64,000 nt of DNA. Origin: a virus (taxonomy: Duplodnaviria; Heunggongvirae; Uroviricota; Caudoviricetes). Position 1 is the stretch's first letter, and the number at the start of each line of letters is the position of its first letter. Both the position numbers and the translations under genes were made by a program. The DNA is taken from positions 72,047 through 136,046 of IMG/VR virus record IMGVR_UViG_3300021431_000082, one strand, 5' to 3'. Shown one piece after another: positions 47,259-61,973 of this stretch. Under the pieces are notes generated by a model. That model had not been told where the DNA came from. It searched no databases and saw nothing but the letters and a program-made list of their open reading frames with translations.

Positions 47259-47633
47259 GTGCATATGCTTACACAAGTTTATTCGTCTCCACCTACCGAG
47301 ATCATTTCGGACGTATATAGTCCGACGTTTAAACGAATGCTTAGATGCCGTTGGGATACCGGATCACCAAAAACGTATTTCAAGTTGACGCCGTTCTTTA
47401 CTAAGGCATCCAATGGTCTGTCTGCGCTTGATACCAAGCACGGGATTATACAGGCAAACAGATATGATATTGTACTACAACCAGATCCAACTGGGAAACC
47501 GGTTGAGGTCGAGGCTCTCGGAATAACAAAGCTAAAAGATGTTGATTGTGTTATCGGTATGGACGTGATAGGCCGAGGTGATTTCACAATCGTTATGAAC
47601 AAAGGCTCTATATACTTTAGATTTATATTTTAA
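47259..47633 (+). CDS. Retropepsin-like aspartyl protease
   Basis: WDTGS and VIGMDVI motifs. Confidence 0.7.
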   Translation: MHMLTQVYSSPPTEIISDVYSPTFKRMLRCRWDTGSPKTYFKLTPFFTKASNGLSALDTKHGIIQANRYDIVLQPDPTGKPVEVEALGITKLKDVDCVIGMDVIGRGDFTIVMNKGSIYFRFIF

Positions 47634-48302: not shown

Positions 48303-48971
48303 TCAAATATTTATCAAAGAAAATAGCATGTGTATTATACCGGTTTTGTTGATTGTCATTTTGTCTATTTTGAGAAAGTTGATTGGTATATTATAATATT
48401 GAAATTCTTTTGAATCTTTGATAATTTTTAATGCATCCATAATTATTTGTTTTTGATAGTGTATCGCCACTTTCTTTTGATTGCTATATGATAATAATAC
48501 ACTTATAAATGCATCAATTTCAATATAGTCAAAACCGACTTTTTTATCGACTCCTGTGCTCTGTCTAATTTCAGGTTCTCCAAAATATTTTACCAAGGCT
48601 TTATATTCGGAATTGCCGCAATATGAACAAAGTTTCGCCGCTTGTGTTCCAGTCATTCCGTCTTCAATCGTGTCCATTAACATCCATAACATTAGCGGAC
48701 TAACATTTTTATTAATGCGCCTTTTTAACCCAATGGCAATTTCATTAATCGGTGGAGGTACTTTTATATCCCAATTGTATTTAGATATGAATTGAGGAAG
48801 TAAATCCTTGCTTTCTTTATGAAATGTAATTCTGTTGCTGCCCAAGTCGTATCTAAAAGTTTTTCCACCACATTTAATATCAGCATATATAAATTGGTCT
48901 TTTACAGCCTTGATAAAAATATATTTTCTAATCATTGAATTATATAGTATTGGAGGTAATTTTGAGTACAT
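48303..48971 (-). CDS. AT-rich antisense accessory protein of unknown function
   Basis: 222-aa ORF opposite to the late operon. Confidence 0.65.
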   Translation of the reverse strand: MYSKLPPILYNSMIRKYIFIKAVKDQFIYADIKCGGKTFRYDLGSNRITFHKESKDLLPQFISKYNWDIKVPPPINEIAIGLKRRINKNVSPLMLWMLMDTIEDGMTGTQAAKLCSYCGNSEYKALVKYFGEPEIRQSTGVDKKVGFDYIEIDAFISVLLSYSNQKKVAIHYQKQIIMDALKIIKDSKEFQYYNIPINFLKIDKMTINKTGIIHMLFSLINI

Positions 48972-50041: not shown

Positions 50042-53000
50042 ATGGCGGATCTTAAATTTTCATCTAAAAGCAAGATGTTAGATATGGATGCCATTACAAA
50101 GAGCATTGAAAACACAGTATTATCGTAGTTTCAAAAGCTTACGTCCAATCTACAAAAAGAATTAAAACTAGAGTTAGAGGTACCTATTGAGTTCACAGAA
50201 CAGAAGAAAAGTCTAAACAAGTAGATTAGTAATCTACAAAGGTAGATTGATAACTCTCTGTAGGATGTTCGATAGGAACTTCAAAAAAGCATTGAAGATC
50301 GGTGGAAATTCAATCGTACCGGAAAATATGGCACGAACAAAAAGAATCAACCAATAAATCTTAGTGATTATACTAAGATGGTTGATATCAGAGACTATAA
50401 AAACAAGCGCCTCGAAATGATTAAGCAATTAGCTGATATTACAGATGATGGGATCAAATTAAAAGATCCAAAAAATCTACATCAGCTAGTTCAAAATATA
50501 AAAGCTTACGAAGAAGCTTTGCGCAGATTACATGAACTTTCTGCACAGAGAAATATGAAGTATAAGCCTGATGAGGGCGAGCTTAATTTTGAACAATTAT
50601 TTCCAGGGTATAAGCTCTCGGGTGATATGCAAGCAAATGCAGACGCAATGGCAAAATCCTTTGCAACTGCATATAAGACGTCGTTGCAATCAGAATTAGA
50701 AAGCAAAAAAAATGAATTATCCAATATATTGCTTGATATTAATAGAGCTGTTGCAAGAAGCGCAAGCAAACAAGAAGGCGTTGGGTATGAATATGATCAG
50801 AAGGCGTATGAAAAAGCGGTAAAAGCTAGGGAGGACGCCCAGCTTCGCATTGATCATAGCGAAGCTCAGATTGAAAACTCTATCAGAGATGAGATTAATG
50901 CGTATATAGAACTTGAACGAAGGCTGAATAGTCCTGACCTAGATTAGAACAGTGCGCTTTATGAAGATCTGGCTGATCGCGAAGATAATAGTTTGGCGCG
51001 ATTAAAAAGAGCGATTGAACTAATTGATAAATATAAGATTGAAATTCCAGAATTAACAAAGGTCTACAATGAAAATTGGAATCTGAGTGGAGAGACACTT
51101 GGCGATCTTATTCGTGAAAACGTAGACGGTTTCGATTAGAACACTTCGTTCTTAAGTGGTTTTGAAAAAGATGCCGAAAGGGCAAAATCAGACTGGATAA
51201 AAGCAAATAGAGATGTTGATACAGCAAAGTAGTATCTTGATTCTTGGAAGGACTTATTACTTCAGTTAAAAGATACTGATCAGATGCAAGAAGCCGTTGA
51301 TAATATTTAGAAAGAAAAGATTGATTCTGAATTACGATCTTTAAGAGAAGAAAATGAACGGCTCTCTTAGCGTATCCAGGTTTTAGAGGATGAACTGAAT
51401 ACATTTCAAAACGAAAATGTATATAACGATACTGGTTATCATGATGCTCAGGTAAATACTGTAGCAAAATCTGAAGATACGCATTCTCTTGATGCTGAAA
51501 TAGATGATGTCAATTTATTAAACAATGCGATAAAAGATGTCATCAGCTCAATTCATAGCAAAACTGAGGCGTTCGGATCAGAACGTGATAGTGTTGTAAA
51601 CTGGCTTGATGATGAAATAGAAAAAATAGATGAGCTATCTCGAAAGGCTGATAGAGTCACACCAGATCTTTCTTTAAATAATGGTGGCGAGCTTGTAAAT
51701 AACAGCACTGCGAATGGTAATTCATTTTCTGCTTTGCAAGACTCGGTCTCTTCTGTTACTTAGAGTGTCATACGATTTGGAGAAGCTGTTGATACGGCGT
51801 CGCAAAAGCTCGGTAATATTAAAACCAAAAATGCGTCCAGTCCAAAAGAAAGTTCATAGTCCGATTTTGAAAAACGTGTGGCATCTGCGGCCAAAGCCCT
51901 TAACAATTAGACAAACCAGTTTATTTAGGGCGTTGATGTTATTGTTAAAACAGAAGAAGAATATCAGCGGTTGAGCCGCAAAAGTAATCGCTCAAGTAAG
52001 GAAAACACCAAGCTTAATACTTTATTAAATGAACGAGCCGCCGCTCGTGATCGAATGGATAGGAACCATGTTGACCACGAAACATTTATGGCACAGCGCG
52101 AAAGGATGGAATCAGCGTCAAGGCGTGCCGCATAGGCGATTCAAGAAGAAGTCAGAGCAGAACGCGAACTTGCCAAAGCTGAAGCGGAGCAAGCAGAACA
52201 GGCAAGAATTGCAGCTCAAGCTAAAGAAGAAAAAGCGAAACGTGACGCCGCCGCAAAAGTTGAACAAGAAAGACAGGCAGAGCTTGCGGAAACTTATAAA
52301 AAGTTTGACTACCTTGAAAAGAATATGAACCGATATGTTCAGGGTACTCTGCTTGGCGATTCTGGCGATGACTGGGATGACTTTTCAAAGAATTTTGAGG
52401 AGACGTTGGCGTTTGCCAAGAATCTAAAAGCTGATACAGTAGGCATTATTGAAGCTAAAAGGAAATTAAATAATGCCGAGGAAGAGGCGTATCTTAATGC
52501 CGAAATTGAAAACGGAGTTCGTCTTGAGCAGCAACGTGTTAATCTAATTGCCCAGGCAAAAACCGAGAGAAAAAATGAAGCGGATGAGCTTGTGAAAATG
52601 GATCAGGATATTGGTCGAGCTTTTGCCACAAATACCTCGTCTAAATCCGCTAAAGATTCATATAGTATTTTTGCCAGTACCGGCATGATAGACGAACAAG
52701 CCACAGAAGAAAAAGAATGGCTTGCAAAAATATCTGAATATCAAGATTTACAATCAAAGATTTCGGATCTCTTATCAAAACAAGCAACGGTTGGATTGAC
52801 GCCAAATCAATCATAGAAGCTCGATGATTATCGTGATAAGCTTGCCAGCCTTGAATTAGCCTTTGATGATCTGGAAGATGGCGTTTTAGTCTCTGATAAA
52901 GTAAAAGATGCGGTAAATAACATGGCTGCGTCTGGAGAAAGGGATATAACTTCATATAATAAAATTCTTAGTGAGTTTAATAAGAATTTTGCTTTTGTCC

Positions 53001-56000
53001 AGAAGCTTTCAAATGGGAGTGAAGACAGCATTAAGGAAGCCCTCCGGCAATATATAGAAGATAATGGTGGACGGGATTTAAAGAACTTCACTGGTGTTGG
53101 CACAAAGAATGGAGTATCAAATTTTACCGCAGAATTTACCGGTGCTGATGGCGCAATCAAGAAATTAAATGCCTCTTTAAACACTACAGATAATACACTG
53201 CGTGGTGTTGTTAAGTCTGGAAGGAGTACTGGATAGTTCTTTAGCGAACTTGTTGATACAATCTCTAATAAGTGGAGATCATTTATTGGTTATCTGTCTA
53301 CGCAGGTAACTGTTATGCAACTCTGGGGGATCTTAAAACAAGGTATTGCAGTAGTTAAAGAACTTGATTCTGCATTTGTAGAATTAAAACGTATTTCAAA
53401 TGATTCCGCTTCTGCCCTTGAGGACTTTAGAAAGAGATAGTTCGAACTTGCCGATACTGTTGGCACTACATCTGCAACGATTATAAATGCTGCCACGGAG
53501 TGGGAACACCTTGGCTATAGCATTAAGGAAGCTGAGGAGCTTGCAAAGACGTCAGCTATCTACAAAAATATCGCTGATGGTATGACTAGTGACTCTGAGG
53601 CAACCGAAGATCTCGTCAGTATTCTTAAGGCATACAACTTCGAGGCTAACCAAGCAATGGATGTTACCGATGCTCTTATTGCGACATCCAATAACTATGC
53701 GGTAACCGCTGCTGATATCGGTAATATTCTTAAGCGCTCTTCTGCTGCTCTTGCTATGGGTGGTAACTCATTCGAGGAAACCGTAGCTCTTGGTACGGCG
53801 ATGAACGAAGTGCTTCAGTCGGCAGAAGTCGCCGGCTCAAGTTTGAAAGTTCTTTCTCTCCGTCTCCGTTCAAGTAAGACCGAGCTTGCAGAAATGGGTG
53901 AAGAGACCGACAATCTTGTTGAGTCTACGCCAAAGCTTAGGACGCAGATCAAGGCTCTAACAAAAGGTTTTGATATCCTTGGTTCTGATGGTAAAACGAT
54001 AAAGAGCACGTATGAAATAATGAAAGGTATTGCGGCAGTCTGGAAGGATATGTCAGACGTAGATCAAGCCGCACTCCTTGAACTTATAGCCGGTAAGACT
54101 CGTGCACAAGGCGTGTCAGCACTTTTGAGTAACTGGTCCCAGGTTGACGAGGTCCTTAAAACCATTGCCGAAGACGAAGGTACCGCTCTTAGGAATAATG
54201 AGGCGAAGCTAAATACAATACAAGGTAGGCTTACAAAACTTACAAACGCAAGTCAGAAACTCGCATCTGATGCGCTAAATACCGAACTGATTAAAGATTT
54301 TATTAGTGGCGTAACTGGAGCGGTAAACGCTTTAGACACACTCATTCAAAAGATCGGTATCCTTCCAACTGCTGCTGGAGCAATCGGTCTCGGTACAACA
54401 TTTACAAAAGGCGGAGGTCAGCTCAATCAGAGCTCATATCCTAAATGGATGAAATCCTACAAGGCCCCCGGCATAGTGCGTGGTAACACGAAACAAGTTC
54501 ATGCGTTCTAAAGATTTATGCTATAAGAAACAGACCTAGCGGGTACTAGGTCTGCTCACAGGGATCATCCAAGTACAAAGTACTTAAGAAGATCATAAAT
54601 AACACAGGCGATAATACCGCACACGATATTAAACGCCGCAGACTATAGAAGCTATCTCAATAGCATTTACCTCCTTCCAAGCAACGCTTATCAGTTACAG
54701 GAGGCATTATAGCATAAATCTTCAGAGCACATGAGCGAGGCTATGCGTAGTTAACCCGACGAAACTAGCGGACTGATCATCCGCTCTATCAATAGCAAAT
54801 TGATTTAAGACTGGGACATGCAAAGCATTTACATGCGGAGCATTATCAGCAGCGAAGCCATCTTATGATGGAACGTCCAGAGACTATAATGTCGGTGTGG
54901 AGCCGCTTGAATTGCGAACTTCATAAAGGGATAGTCCAAAGAATGTGTAACACACATGATCCAGGTATCGGAACCTGCAAACAAATCCGAGTTTGTTTGT
55001 AATCAACATTCATGCGGATTTATGTTGATTATCTTTAGCAAGATATGCAAATATTTTATTGCGTATATTGTCACACAGGATAAGTCGTAGAACACGGCTA
55101 AGTTAAATTCTATGAAAAGATATAGAGAACTCAAACAAGGGCACGAGAACTAATCTCCTGCCATATTATTATCCGAGTATTTGGCCGCTTTCAAACCGAG
55201 TATTTGTCAGAACTTGCTTCCGCAGTTATTACACTTATACGTCTTCCCTACATCTCCCATTCCAAAGATACCGAATATCCCTATCTTCGCAGCTTTCCCA
55301 ACGGTGGAGAGCTTTTTTAAATCCGTAGAACCGCAGATGGGACAATGGGGAATGTGGGTGGGTTGAGGCTGTGTAAGTTTTTTAACTCGTTCTTCAGCAT
55401 CATCCCATTCTTTTTTATTTTTTGCATCTGCTATTGCTTTAAGTTGTTTAAAGTACTCTGTTTCACCATCGTGTATAATATGTTCTTCGATATATTTATC
55501 TTTTTCGTCTTTTGGAAGTTTAAACCATGCGACAGTATCGTATTCAAATATATCCCATACATGATGACACACAGGGCAATGATCTGATTTTGCGAAAGCT
55601 TTTAACGCCATACTACCGCACCTTTTACAAAAGACTAATTTTGCTTCATCCATTATAAACCTCCTTATATGTATGGTTCTTTGATATTGTATCATGTTTT
55701 TGCTTGTAGGTGGCATTCTCAACGCTTATAAGAACCGTAATCCAAAGGGTGGTACTACTAATCTGTTTTAGACAGATATGTTTTCCGATGATCAAAAATC
55801 TAGCATACAGTTCATGAAAGACAATGATCTGTTAACGAAGGAAAACATAGATCATTTGACCGAGTTTAACAGTGCTCAAAAGGAAGTTCTTGAACTGATG
55901 GGCAAAAAAGACATCGGTATGGAAGAAGCCATCAAAGAACTTGGTGAGTCTGCTCAAGAGTCTGGTGGATTACTCCAACTCTTTAAAGAAAAAGGTGTTG

Positions 56001-59000
56001 ATGCATTTAAAGCCGTTGGTCTTGCGATTGGCAACATGTTAGCTGCCGCAACAATCTCCTTCCTTGCAACACAGGCCATGGCGTTTATTGACGAGTGGAT
56101 CAACCACACCAAGAATCTGAATAATTCCGCCAGGGAATTCGGCGCTCAGATGAAGCGCACTGAGTCTGATATAGATTCATATGGTGAAAGAATCGCCGCC
56201 CAGAAATCTATCATTGAAGACAATAAGTCTTCTATTGAAGATGTCACAACCGCTCGGGCTGAGCTCTATAAGATTCAGTCTGAGATGATTGCCGCATATG
56301 GTGGCGAAGGCGAATCTATCAAAGCTATTACTGATGCTATTAACGGACAGAATGACGCTCTCGACAAGAACATTGAGAAGCTAAAAGAACAACAGCATCA
56401 AAAGGCTATTGAAGATTTTAATAAAGAGAACGATGACTGGCGTAAGGCGACAGTACGTTAGATGAAGAATGCGACTATGACAGATGATGGCGTGATAATT
56501 CCATCAACCATGACTGCTTTTGAAGAGTTTATGGATAATATGGAGAATTATCAAGTTAATCTGTCCGCAATAAACGACGCATTACCCGAGAAAGAATTCC
56601 AAGACGTTATCAAAAAACATGCGGATCAAAATGACTGGACTGATTTATCTTCCGCTGTTGGAAACGTCAATCAATTCGTCAAGCTATATGATGAATTAAT
56701 GGATACGGCTAGTATGCTGCGTGATTCATCAAACGGTGGAATCAGTCAAGATAGATACGATTATATATCAAAGTATATAACGCAGTTGAGTAAGCCGGCT
56801 AGGGATACAGCATAGAGCAATCGTGATCTTTATGAACAGGAGATGCTTCATCAGATCCGTTAGAGAAAGGATCTTAACGATAGGTATTCAGACCTATCTG
56901 ACCTTTATGGTAAGTATCTCAAAGCGGATACAGCGGAGTTACAGCACGAAGTCTATGAAGCATATTCTGCCGCAGTTAAACAGATAGCCGACGATAAATC
57001 AATTAGTTATGGCATACGACAGCAGTTCCTGAGTCTGTATCCAGATTTAAAGGCAGAGGCGGACAAGTGGACATTCGAGGTAAACTTTAAAGCCAATAAA
57101 GATGGACTGCGTGACGAAATACAGAAACAGATTGATGCAATATCTGCTGCGATTGGTCATGCTGTAACTCAAGAAGAATTAGATCATTGGGACGATTCCC
57201 AATATGACGCTATCGCAAATTCAGCTTATAGTAATTACGCCAGGACGCTTTCACAAAACGGAATATCATCCGTACAAACTGGGAATGCTATCGCTGTTGA
57301 ACAAGGTGTATTAGATACAAATACTACTGGCGCTTTAAAAGATTTTATCGAAAAGAAAGCCCCTGGGGCAATTAACGATGTCGATAAAAACCTAATCGCA
57401 GCTGTAAAGGATGTAAAAAATTTCCAAAGTGCTTTTACCAGAGCTTGGAATAAAATTGGCAAAGATGTTCCGAATGACGGGCAAAAGGTAAACGTCGCTT
57501 TAAAGCTAATGGCCAGAGAAGCCGAAAGCACAGCAAAGACCACAGAGAAAGAACTCAGTGGCATGGATCTTTCCGACGTTGCCAAGCATCTCACAAAACT
57601 AGGCGATGTTTATGACAAGCTTAAAAAAGATGGCGAAGTAAAATGGAACACTATTGATACCAAGGATTTCAAAGAATCCTTTGGCGACATTAAAGATGAA
57701 ACTGGTGAATTCCAAAAAGCATGGGATAATTTTCATCAGATTTTAAGTTCCACACCTAACGATACGAAAGCTGTACAAGATGCATTTGATACTCTTGCGA
57801 GTTCGTATGTTTACAATTCTGATTGTATGCAAATGCTCAATGAGAATAACAAAGATCTTGTTATTGGTATGTTGAGCGATAATGGTGTAGCAAATGCGGC
57901 AGATGTTGTTAATGATGCATTAAATCGTAAAGCTGCGGCGGCTGAATACGATGCATTTAGTGAGGATCTCCTGGCACAAAAAGGTGTTGATCTCGCTAAT
58001 GTAAGCGGCGAAAGCGCAACTGCTACACTTGAAGAAGCGACAGCCTTTTTAAAATAGGCTGGTTATGCCGAAGAAGATCAGGCGGCAATTGCACGGCTCA
58101 TCCTTGAACAGTGGGCTCTTAACGGATAGCATATCGACACATCTGATAATTGTAATGCACTTGCTGATCTTGCGTAGATGGCTGGGGTTGCTGCCTCTTA
58201 GATCATAGCATTAAACAACGCTATGGCCGGTGGAACTACATCTGCATCGTAGGCGTCTGGTGGGAACTTCGCCATGCTGAACAATGGCGTAGATTCACAA
58301 AAAGCCAACCAAGAATATCAGAAAGCTTAGAGAGAATATGAAACTAAAAAAGCGCTTGAAGATATTCGACAAGCCAGAGAAAACATACGCTTTAAAGGTA
58401 GCGGTGGATCTGGTAGTGGCGGTGGCTCTGGCGGTGGTGGCGGGAACAAAGAACCGTCCAAAACCGACAAAGAATTCGACTACGTCAACCGTGCTCTTCA
58501 GATCATGCAAGAGCAAAATGATGAACTCCGTGAAAAGGTAGACAATCAGTACGTCATCCTCCAAGATGCCCAGGATAATCTCGCCGAATTTACATCTGCA
58601 TCTGATAGCCTGAACGAAGCAGAAACTAAACTCACCAGTCTCGGCGTTGATACAAAGACTGACGACTTCAAAAACTTTATCGCCACTCTCGATGAAGTCC
58701 AACAAGTCAACGATGAGATGAACCAGATGATCGACGATACCCCAGGATATGTATTGCCTGCCGGTGATACATTCGCAAAGGTTGAAGCCGAGAATTATGG
58801 TGATCTCATTGAAGCCGCAAGAGAATACAAGTCTGCTCTTGGTGACGTTGAGAAAGCCAAAGAGAAAGTCAACAGCAAAACTCTTGATGAGAATGGAACC
58901 GGTCAGCTTACATTCATCAAACAGCTTCAGGAATCAGACAAGAAACTGATTGAAGCCTACGAACACGCCGCTAATTCTTATAGTACCGAATGGGAAGAAT

Positions 59001-61453
59001 ATAAGAAAAAGATCGAAGAAGCCTTTAAGGAAGACGGTCGTGGCGAAAAGTATATCCAGGATATCATGTATGGTAATCTCGATCCCGAAGAATGGGAGCG
59101 GATGATCACATATGATTCCAATAACCAAGCCGAAAAGGATAAGGTCGAACTGCTTGAGCGTGGTCAGACAGCCTATGACCATCAGAAAGAATCACTGAAG
59201 TCCATGCGTGAATGGCAGACGAAGCTTAACGAGGATGTTCAGAAAGAATATGAAATGCGTCTGAACATTGTCAAGGCTGAGATGGTCGCCATTGAATCCC
59301 GTATGAACGAAGCTCAGCATGATCTTGATATGAAGGAAATCCTTGGTGAGGTCGTGCAGGAAGCTGATTATCAGCGGTTGATTGGAATCTCTCAAGAGCA
59401 GGTCTCTAACTACGAGAAACAGCTGAGCGTTCTTAAGGAGCAGCTTGGTACTCTCGATGAAGGTGAGCAAGCCTGGTATGACTGCAAGTCTCAGATCGCT
59501 GACTGTGAACAGAGCATCCGGGATTGTGTAAAACAACAGGCCGAATGGAATGATACCATTCTGAGAATGCCGGTTGAGAACATCTCCCGCTTCCTCGGTT
59601 TAATCCAGAATCTCGGACAAACTCTTGAGAACTGGTTATCCGTAAATGATGCCAAGGGTATTGCCCAGACTGCCGAGCAGATCATGACATCATGGACCAC
59701 AGCTTATGATCAGATTGCTGATGATGAACTCGGATTAATGAAGCAGCTGGAAGATTACCAGGATTTGCTCGAAAATTATGATCTCGGATAGAACAAATTT
59801 TCTGAGGTAAGTGACGAGATTCAGAGTGCTCGTGATTCTGTTGAGTCTCTGGTCGAAAAGATGATCGAGTTGAATAAGCAACTGCTTACTCTTCCGATTG
59901 ATAAGATCGCTGAGATGACCACATATCTTGATGGTACTCTCTCCGACCTACAGACGGTTCAGTCCGAGCATGAGACGGCGATCAACACCGTTATCGAACT
60001 GATTACCAAAGAGCAAGAAAAGCTTGAAGACGAATATACCAAACTTGAAGAGTCAATACAAAAGCAGATCGAACCACTACAAGATCAGCTGGATACATTG
60101 CAGAAAGCAAATGATGCCCGTGATCGTGAATTGGCAGTCGAACAGGCTTTATACGAACTGGAAAAAGCTCGTGAGCAAAAGACAGTCCAGGTCATCCGTA
60201 ATGGTCGTGTCGAATACGCAGCCGATGAATCGGCAATCAGGGACGCCCAACAAGGTTATGATGATGCGGTTTACAATAAGCTTACCGGAGAACTCCAAGA
60301 TAAGATCGACGAACTGAACGACTCTCTTGAGAAATCTCGTAAGTCAACCGACGATCAGGTTAAAGCTCTCGAAGACCTCAAGAAGGAAAGATGGGAAACC
60401 ATCATGCCAGATACTGAGCGTAATCGTAACGAAGAGATAACCTCTCAGTTCTTTAAGGATATGTTTGGAGTTACTAACTGGAAAGAACTGGTGCTCGCCG
60501 GCAAGGACGCAAACGGTAACTACGCAGATGAAGCTATCTATCAGGGAACTCGTGCTAGTTACGAACAGAACTCTGTACAGATGCGTGATACCCAGCGTCA
60601 AATCGATGCTAACAATCTGATCACAGATTAGCTGACCAGACTCGTTGAAGATTTCCAGGCTGACCGGATTACGTCAGAGCAACTCTTCGCTAAAGTGTCC
60701 ACGCTTATGAGCTTTGTCAAAGATGGAATCATTACCGGACAAGAGCGGCTTGAGAACACTCTCTCACTCGGTGATTACTCCACTCTCGGTGCTGCATTAA
60801 AGGGAGCCGTAGAACAACGTGGAAGCCAGATCGAACTGTTCGGAGAAAACCTTAAGGTTGCGACTGATAACCGGAATAAGGTCAATGCTCTCATTGGAAA
60901 ATGGGATAACTTTAAAGTTTGGTACGATACAACATACAAACAGCTTTATGAACAATATAGGAAGATTGACTTCATCGGCGACTATGTGAAGAATATCTCC
61001 GACCATATTGATGATGACGATGATGAAAGGGGACCAGGGACTGTTTTTGAAAGTTCATCACGAGACCCTGAAGATTATCGTGGAGACGCCAGTTATAATG
61101 ATGTTGGACATTATTCTGATGGCCTTGAAAAAGGAGCTATTGGAAGTTTAACTCCATCTGATCGGTTCAAAGCCATCCAAGCACTCGGTCTTCGCAAACT
61201 CGATCCCGATGAATTCCCCGCCATTCTCCATCTCGGTGAAGGAGTCATCAATCCTCGTCAGCAATCCACCATGCTCGATAACATGCGTCAGGCTCTTGCT
61301 CTTGGAGGATCAGGAACCGGAGCTGTCATCCAGATGTCCTTCGGAGATATTAGTCTTCCATCTGTAACCAATGGTCAAGACTTTGCGGAATCTCTGGCTG
61401 TGCAATTCCAGCCGGCGATGAACCAGGTCTTCTCAAAGATCTTCAGGCGTTGA
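50042..61453 (+). CDS. Tape measure protein (about 3,375 aa after splicing; 30 in-frame TAG; one intron)
   Basis: One reading frame throughout. TMP core ELDSAFVELKRIS...LGYSIKEAEELA...ATEDLVSILKAY...AVGNV-type helices; Gly/Ser linker at about 58395-58445; C-terminal EFPAILHLGEGVIN. Confidence 0.85.
54419..55702 (+). ncRNA. Group I intron in tape measure gene (boundaries are a prediction)
   Basis: Q-like ATCAGCAGCGAAG near 54845; R-like CCAGAGACTA 54877-54886; S-like AAGGGATAGTCC near 54926-54937; P7 GACTA/TAGTC; P3 CCGAC (54756)/GTCGG (54891); P8 TGTGGAG/CTTCATA; TAA at 54509 otherwise closes the frame. Confidence 0.75.
55207..55653 (-). CDS. Zinc-ribbon membrane-associated protein inside the intron
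   Basis: AAGGAGG RBS before MDEAK; four CxxC pairs; HCPICGSTDLKKLS...IGIFGIFG...YKCNNCG. Confidence 0.8.
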   Translation of the reverse strand: MDEAKLVFCKRCGSMALKAFAKSDHCPVCHHVWDIFEYDTVAWFKLPKDEKDKYIEEHIIHDGETEYFKQLKAIADAKNKKEWDDAEERVKKLTQPQPTHIPHCPICGSTDLKKLSTVGKAAKIGIFGIFGMGDVGKTYKCNNCGSKF

Positions 61454-61484: not shown

Positions 61485-61585
61485 GAAAAAGGTGTCACCG
61501 TGAAGCAAGCGGTTAGCCCTAGTCACAAAGTTTCATTCCTAAAGAATGACCGCTCAGTTTTGCAGGCCGAGGCGGTCATTTTTGT
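61485..61585 (+). ncRNA. Putative type I antitoxin sRNA
   Basis: About 100 nt between the consensus promoter and the terminator AATGACCGC...GCGGTCATTTTT; convergent with toxin ORF. Confidence 0.6.
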
Positions 61586-61656
61586 ATGGTCTCAATAACC
61601 TCTTTCAAGGCTACGAGGATAAGCAGTACGAACATAAGTTCACACACTTCAATCAT
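61576..61656 (-). CDS. Type I toxin-like hydrophobic peptide 1 (MIEVCELMFVLLILVALKEVIETIQK)
   Basis: GAAAGGAG RBS; own promoter TTGCCA-17-TATAAT at 61759-61731; single TM segment. Confidence 0.7.
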   Translation of the reverse strand: MIEVCELMFVLLILVALKEVIETIQK

Positions 61657-61892: not shown

Positions 61893-61973
61893 TTAATCTT
61901 TTAAGTAATCGAGAACAGATACAAGTAGCTGTAACTACATAAGTATCACGCCAAGAAAAGCATAATCGATCAT
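61893..61973 (-). CDS. Type I toxin-like hydrophobic peptide 2 with in-frame TAG (MIDYAFLGVILM*LQLLVSVLDYLKD)
   Basis: AAAGGAGGTG RBS; TAG at 61935-61937; TAA stop; TGGTATAAT promoter near 62032-62040. Confidence 0.68.

Follow-up and report, generated by a model that had tools for sequence, protein, structure and literature searches.

An endonuclease-less group I intron as a probable cargo bay within the tape-measure gene of a stop-codon-recoding phage

The stretch of DNA analyzed here (the window, 64 kb) is part of a 152-kb virus record whose late-strand genes bear in-frame TAG codons and whose genome encodes a tRNA with a CUA anticodon. Three tyrosine recombinases are also encoded, which makes lysogeny plausible, and relatives come from gut Clostridia; we regard the phage as probably temperate, TAG-recoding and of Clostridia type. 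Its tape-measure protein (TMP) gene is seen as two frames (50042-54511 and 55694-61453) with another gene, here called the cargo gene, between them. Exon 1 (50042..54418, plus strand) comprises 1,459 codons, including 18 in-frame TAG, with a PhageMin_Tail domain near its end, exon 2 (55703..61453, plus strand) carries 12 in-frame TAG, and the joined exons encode 3,375 aa with no stop. These 30 TAG codons, a rate of 0.0089 per codon, would block the TMP under the host code. Code 15 was used only for opening frames and does not imply that TAG is read as Gln; the TAG positions of the TMP align with Ser 15 times, Ala 9 times and Gln 8 times, and the inserted residue may be Ser instead of Gln. The CUA suppressor tRNA, located outside the window (G000:C1:51797-51883, minus strand), has a long variable arm, a G discriminator and a Ser-like body. 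Upstream of the TMP gene, the late operon holds a TAG-free antisense gene of 222 aa (48303-48971, minus strand) with no Pfam or PHROG match, and downstream of it lie two RBS-led, 26-codon hydrophobic ORFs, one with a TAG at codon 13 (61893-61973, minus strand) and one with no TAG (61576-61656, minus strand).

Sequence comparison indicates that the TMP gene is very probably split by a group I intron of 1,284 nt (54419..55702, plus strand) with the cargo gene inside it. The 5' splice site follows U54418 and the omega-G is 55702, while a TAA (54509-54511) inside the P2 extension terminates the unspliced exon-1 frame. An internal guide sequence (54456..54470, plus strand) forms two helices with the exons. 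P1 (6-7 bp, covarying in relative L009) involves the last nucleotides of exon 1 and has a wobble between U54418 and guide G54464 at the cleavage point; P10 (8 bp here and 9-10 in L009 and L014) takes in the first 8 nt of exon 2. These 8 nt are invariant and guide-complementary, and divergence begins immediately after them. In an unbiased scan for P1 plus P10 over all in-frame site pairs, 54418|55703 ranked top with a score that 0 of 40 shuffles reached, and the homologous junction was likewise picked in four relatives (L008, L009, L010 and L014); for distant intron families the scan is indecisive, and the 3' ends given for them are approximate. Joining at the same junctions restores the TMP frame in seven relatives, whose introns (1,587-2,654 nt) mostly have lengths that are not divisible by three, among them 1,856, 2,009, 2,654 and 2,410 nt. 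One further relative, L130, has an uninterrupted, intron-less TMP gene that is 79% identical where exon 1 ends and remains colinear over the junction; our custom intron model finds no match in it. The guide pairings, the restored frame and the colinear L130 allele together fix both splice sites. A search of viral contigs for the spliced junction returned 20 matches, none of which encodes a TMP.

The ribozyme core (P3-P4-P6-P6a-P7-P8; 54756..54937, plus strand) is followed by J7/9, the P9.0 partner, which lies opposite a U-run, and by P9-region hairpins conserved among close relatives (54938..55075, plus strand). Canonical Q, R and S elements are present, and the intron region has a far more stable predicted fold than its shuffles (z of -9.5). 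Core helices are paired in 94.9% of cells, versus 30-48% for slid controls, and 13 of 31 pairs show two-sided changes, values that are not a probability since they derive from seven related sequences, the same ones used to draw the structure. P3 is 95% paired and P6, P6a and P8 are 100% paired with two-sided changes; P4 is irregular (75-86%), interrupted by extra hairpins inserted in its 5' strand. P7 has a bulge, and its guanosine-binding pair G54882-C54936 is invariant in 7/7 sequences, with neighboring pairs that covary. Rfam, in gathering and E-value modes, gave no match at the intron or core, and a custom covariance model was applied in its place. A peripheral P2 extension (54499..54734, plus strand) forms a 28-bp inverted-repeat stem around a 180-nt antisense mini-cassette. 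The intron contains no TnpA/TnpB genes or IS ends, and its only ORFs encode 148 and 33 aa. In another locus (L003:34-4200), the TMP gene has several group I introns at other sites, with sense-strand ORFs of 305 and 374 aa that are endonuclease-like by position.

The 148-aa ORF is the cargo gene (55207..55653, minus strand; ATG start, TGA stop, no TAG), which encodes a double zinc-ribbon protein. As originally predicted, it is a minus-strand gene within the intron: it runs from 55653 to 55207, between the end of P7 (54937) and omega-G 55702, and the mapped splice sites place the gene, its promoter and its terminator between P9 and omega-G. Its predicted expression signals (55660..55694, minus strand) were also found as proposed, with an AAGGAGG RBS at 55666-55660, a 6-nt spacer and an extended -10, TGATACAAT, at 55694-55686, 8 nt inside the 3' splice site. 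This -10 was not called by a plain consensus promoter scan; an extended -10 directly within the intron's 3' end, with its TG 6-15 nt from omega-G, nevertheless recurs in eight different alleles of varying sequence, and this kept position argues for a promoter beyond chance. A longer TTG start at 55722 was rejected, as it lies upstream of the promoter and within exon 2. A terminator-like hairpin 3' of the gene (55130..55162, minus strand) is kept in four relatives and is stronger in L009, so that the predicted transcript would start near 55679 and end at the hairpin near 55135, covering neither the 3' splice site and P10 nor the ribozyme core. The gene is indeed TAG-free and could be expressed under the standard code, but this state is uninformative: at the TMP rate about 1.3 TAG would be expected in 148 codons, and the probability of none (~0.27) is not beyond chance. 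On the plus strand, a terminator-like hairpin with a T-run (55291-55313) beats synonymous shuffles (0/20); it is confined to a homogenized block of the cargo gene in this clade and counts as one occurrence, not a general feature. It could insulate sense-strand cargo from exon 2, or make TMP read-through dependent on a late polymerase.

The cargo protein has a zinc ribbon at each terminus, joined by a helical linker, and two CxxC...CxxC motifs in all. A zinc ribbon with a hydrophobic C-terminal hairpin had been anticipated; there are in fact two ribbons, and in the C-terminal one the cysteine pairs are separated by an amphipathic, Gly-rich loop, which constitutes the hydrophobic part (best 19-residue Kyte-Doolittle value 1.12) and is not a clear transmembrane hairpin. 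This layout of the C-terminal ribbon resembles that of LITAF proteins, although the LITAF family gave no match. The structure model has a pLDDT of 82, with residues 118-134 under 50. Foldseek searches of PDB, BFVD and VIA-wide yielded no characterized fold (best structural scores Z 3.7, E 0.26), the one strong BFVD match being another uncharacterized phage protein, and Pfam, NCBIfam, PADLOC and PDB provided no function. The protein belongs to PHROG 3845, which has no annotated function, and its homologs are uncharacterized phage and Bacillota proteins in which the Cys, Gly, Pro and Lys residues of the zinc ribbon are invariant. The C-terminal domain is fused to varied, unrelated N-termini, which suggests a modular and probably membrane-associated anchor. 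We found no family, fold or paper connecting the protein with superinfection exclusion.

Comparison between alleles revealed that the cargo gene is a mosaic. Its last 150 nt, encoding the C-terminal zinc ribbon (55207..55356, minus strand), are 93-97% identical between alleles that are otherwise ~45% identical; against L010 or L014, identity is 95-97% in this block, where 41-45 of 48 codons are unchanged, and 45-46% in the 5' part, which is saturated at synonymous sites. DNA homology to three alleles stops at 55356-55382, which marks the crossover boundary, and TMP identity between the window and L014 is 98% in exon 1 and 44% in exon 2. The simplest reading of these alignments is that repeated homologous exchange in the 3' block may have reassorted both cargo and TMP halves. 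Beside an inserted protease gene, L008 (6960-7030) retains 20 nt left over from the end of a second, L014-type zinc-ribbon gene, together with sequence downstream of it. Neither this mosaic nor the TAG-bearing mini-gene described next figured in the original prediction.

The 33-codon ORF (54565..54666, minus strand; alternative TTG start at 54660) occupies, with its signals, the loop of the P2 extension. It encodes a hydrophobic, type-I-toxin-like peptide (33 aa, 17-residue hydropathy 2.16) and has TAG at codons 5 and 8, such that the host code would yield a product of 4 aa. An RBS (54676-54669) and a perfect extended -10 (54714-54706) precede it (54669..54714, minus strand), and a terminator hairpin with a U-tail follows (54527..54557, minus strand). 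Such units were present in 7/7 complete introns examined in this clade, with three in L008 and two in L014, one of the latter in the P6a loop. They represent four unrelated peptide types, all with a TAG at most 8 codons from the start, for a chance expectation of ~0.06-0.10 per gene, and the window and L014 share both TAGs despite changes in neighboring codons. The L010 mini-peptide is truncated, and the small hydrophobic ORFs in the introns of L072, L075 and L120 have no TAG. A TAG within the first eight codons would leave the mini-genes readable only under the phage code, and the likeliest reading of this layout is gating by the suppressor tRNA; they may alternatively be inactivated old toxins or, in those types that have a downstream ATG, be translated by re-initiation there. 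As candidate sources of an antisense RNA antitoxin, the left stem arm of the mini-cassette has an inward-facing mirror -10 (5/6), and the intron RNA is complementary in its own right. An anti-SD pairing found upstream of the mini-gene probably precedes the start site and is taken to belong to the intron stem.

The prediction that cargo would vary among related phages was evaluated on 80 loci fetched via alignments of the cargo family, a survey thus ascertained through the zinc-ribbon family, which spans about 20 phage lineages with many near-duplicates. In 64 of the 80, the cargo gene lies antisense, with TMP exon 1 on one side and a large ORF downstream on the other. Of the 16 exceptions, several are contig ends or represent these introns in a different layout, and some family members occur outside introns or on the sense strand. 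Many loci have a detectable group I core, and in distant ones P7 covaries by inspection. The gaps between exons measure 1.8-9 kb and hold up to eight genes, forming 79 clusters. Variable cargo was found, often of defense type as expected for a safe harbor: annotated genes include AbiQ/ToxN (E 4e-29), GmrSD/NsnA, PD-T4-2, NYN/Csx1-like and Schlafen-AlbA proteins, as well as antirepressors, a retropepsin and IS605 TnpB-like genes, although the majority of cargo in relatives has no defense annotation. Within the closest clade, extra cargo is always on the sense strand, namely ToxN (L009, L014, L143 and L145), a protease (L008) and an uncharacterized gene (L010), and the window allele lacks any such extra gene. 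In about 20 lineages the zinc-ribbon gene occupies the 3'-most cargo position, and its cysteines and its promoter, RBS and terminator persist even between alleles whose synonymous sites are saturated.

Several loci depart from this arrangement. Family members on the TMP strand, one inside the intron (L109:9986-10417) and one before an unsplit TMP gene (L115:3781-4176), indicate that the antisense orientation is usual but not obligatory. In L137 (3238-4438), a 76%-identical cargo gene with the promoter and 3' splice-site motif is flanked by a same-strand gene and DNA methylases instead of TMP exon 2, as would be the case for a cassette that has moved elsewhere. In L051 (566-4316), up to seven zinc-ribbon family genes are interleaved with short TMP exon-2-like fragments, which suggests that the 3' cassette may have been duplicated repeatedly.

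We consider it probable that an endonuclease-less group I intron acts as a cargo bay within the essential TMP gene. Late lytic transcription would run through the intron, from which the ribozyme would excise 1,284 nt, with boundaries placed by comparison, to give the 3,375-aa TMP. Cargo genes would form separate opposite-strand units driven by host-type extended -10 promoters and insulated by terminators; their own promoters would make them expressible while the TMP gene is silent, and they are probably expressed in the lysogen. The zinc-ribbon gene would be the resident 3'-most cargo, which needs no recoding. Based on its amphipathic loop and the neighboring cargo, our favored though tentative reading of its product is a lysogen-expressed, membrane-associated accessory factor with a possible role in lysogen immunity or defense. 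The conserved 3' block would serve as a homology arm, at which crossovers could swap the cargo N-terminus, promoter and TMP exon 2 against exon 1, the ribozyme and the other cargo, consistent with the mosaic observed. The P2 and P6a stems house mini-genes whose early TAG would permit translation only with the phage suppressor tRNA. A more elaborate and rather doubtful scheme is a two-code module, in which the TAG-free zinc-ribbon gene would act in the lysogen, and the membrane peptides, transcribed constitutively but blocked by amber codons, would turn toxic only in the presence of a CUA suppressor tRNA. They would then either sense and abort superinfection by a recoding phage or time lysis, and the complementary intron RNA would be their antitoxin during the phage's late transcription.

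Other explanations of the locus were weighed against this cargo bay. The intron could splice while its cargo is a neutral hitch-hiker, with silent insertions piling up and the zinc-ribbon gene giving no benefit to the lysogen, as the fast cargo turnover, including IS605 TnpB-like and antirepressor genes, the leftover zinc-ribbon gene end in L008 and the truncated L010 mini-peptide might indicate. We judge this unlikely because the zinc-ribbon gene keeps its cysteines and expression signals despite synonymous saturation, as well as its 3'-most position across lineages. Absence of splicing, which would make the TMP halves separate proteins, the ribozyme a relic and the cargo an ordinary intergenic moron, has in its favor an in-frame ATG or TTG that opens the exon-2 frame (55694 here) and a core unrecognized by Rfam. 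Yet no Shine-Dalgarno sequence precedes this frame start, the invariance of exon 2 ends with its guide-complementary 8 nt, the core is intact and covarying, and an unsplit homolog exists, all of which renders this explanation very unlikely.

The remaining two explanations concern what the cargo gene does to its host intron. Antisense transcription had been proposed to dampen TMP expression; in the lysogen, such transcription across the intron might act on expression or on splicing, and a polymerase bound at a promoter 8 nt from omega-G would overlap the DNA of the 3' splice site, where late transcription could run into it. The predicted RNA (~55679 to 55135), however, spares P10, P9.0, omega-G and the core, which weakly contradicts this proposal; the TMP is already blocked under the host code by its 30 TAG codons, and the promoter is accounted for by the gene it drives, so that we see dampening as highly improbable. 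Finally, a Cys-rich product encoded in the P9 region, a typical position for such genes, and the existence of an intron-less allele could point to an atypical or decayed His-Cys or HNH homing endonuclease that mobilizes the intron. Against this, the HNH, His-Cys, GIY-YIG and LAGLIDADG families have no match in 25 cargo homologs, there is no conserved His/Asn catalytic set, the gene is antisense, and its conserved domain is joined to unrelated N-termini. With no nuclease family matched among these homologs and the gene inside the spliced segment, the original view that the cargo is something other than a homing endonuclease holds, and the endonuclease explanation is extremely unlikely.

Group I introns of phages have been known as selfish elements that carry homing endonucleases or transposases, and in our literature search no paper described introns serving as accessory-gene bays. 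The TMP genes of Bacillus cereus group prophages carry group I introns TMP-IVS1, -2 and -3, of types IA1/IA2, with an endonuclease gene, a remnant or nothing (Tourasse and Kolsto 2008, PMC2504315). The window intron shares with these its host gene class, in-frame insertion, early intron stop and a general lack of homing endonucleases, but differs in its intact, separately promoted, opposite-strand non-mobility genes, its extra P4 hairpins and a stop 93 nt in (PMC2504315). IStrons are group I introns fused to IS605/IS607, with TnpA/TnpB and IS ends as payload in the sense direction (PMC10690162); they have in common with the window intron a Clostridia-type ribozyme and a large non-endonuclease payload in the 3' part that is spliced out, whereas the latter has no transposase, a fixed site and variable accessory genes as payload (PMC10690162). 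The mini-gene is akin to Fst/Ldr type I toxins in its ~33 aa, single hydrophobic helix, short tail and own promoter and terminator, and the L009 peptide type fits their motif with PxxxG and a conserved Trp (PMC7472228). The window peptide, unlike Fst/Ldr, has NxxxG and Tyr in place of the P/D/S/TxxxG motif and the conserved Trp that precedes a charged tail, matched no family model and is stopped under the host code by its in-frame TAG (PMC7472228). Stop-codon recoding has been described in gut phages as a gate on late genes, with a recoded intron endonuclease and lysis genes reported (Borges et al., 10.1101/2021.08.26.457843). Here too, TAG is confined to late-strand genes and the phage has a CUA tRNA, but recoding in the window intron affects antisense mini-genes that have host-type promoters and lie in intron stems beside TAG-free cargo (10.1101/2021.08.26.457843). 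With their amber-blocked frames, the mini-genes would allow the idea that such recoding gates toxic genes to be tested directly and on a small scale.

Phage morons and defense hotspots are variable, defense-enriched promoter-gene-terminator units exchanged via conserved flanks. The site in the window resembles them in its self-contained, variable and defense-enriched units that recombine in conserved flanks, but this hotspot lies within one essential gene and is removed at the RNA level, with the coding end of the cargo as one homology arm. Introns hosting exchangeable accessory and defense genes within an essential virion gene would represent a different use of splicing, and the crossover point would reassort two TMP halves. 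The cargo intron would also account for the annotation of many Clostridia-phage TMPs as a pair of genes, and would provide a fixed, easily mined site for the discovery of new defense genes. The window itself contains a retropepsin-like (DTG) protease gene (47259-47633, plus strand), and a similar family is found as intron cargo in L008 (6437-6832, minus strand) and six other loci.
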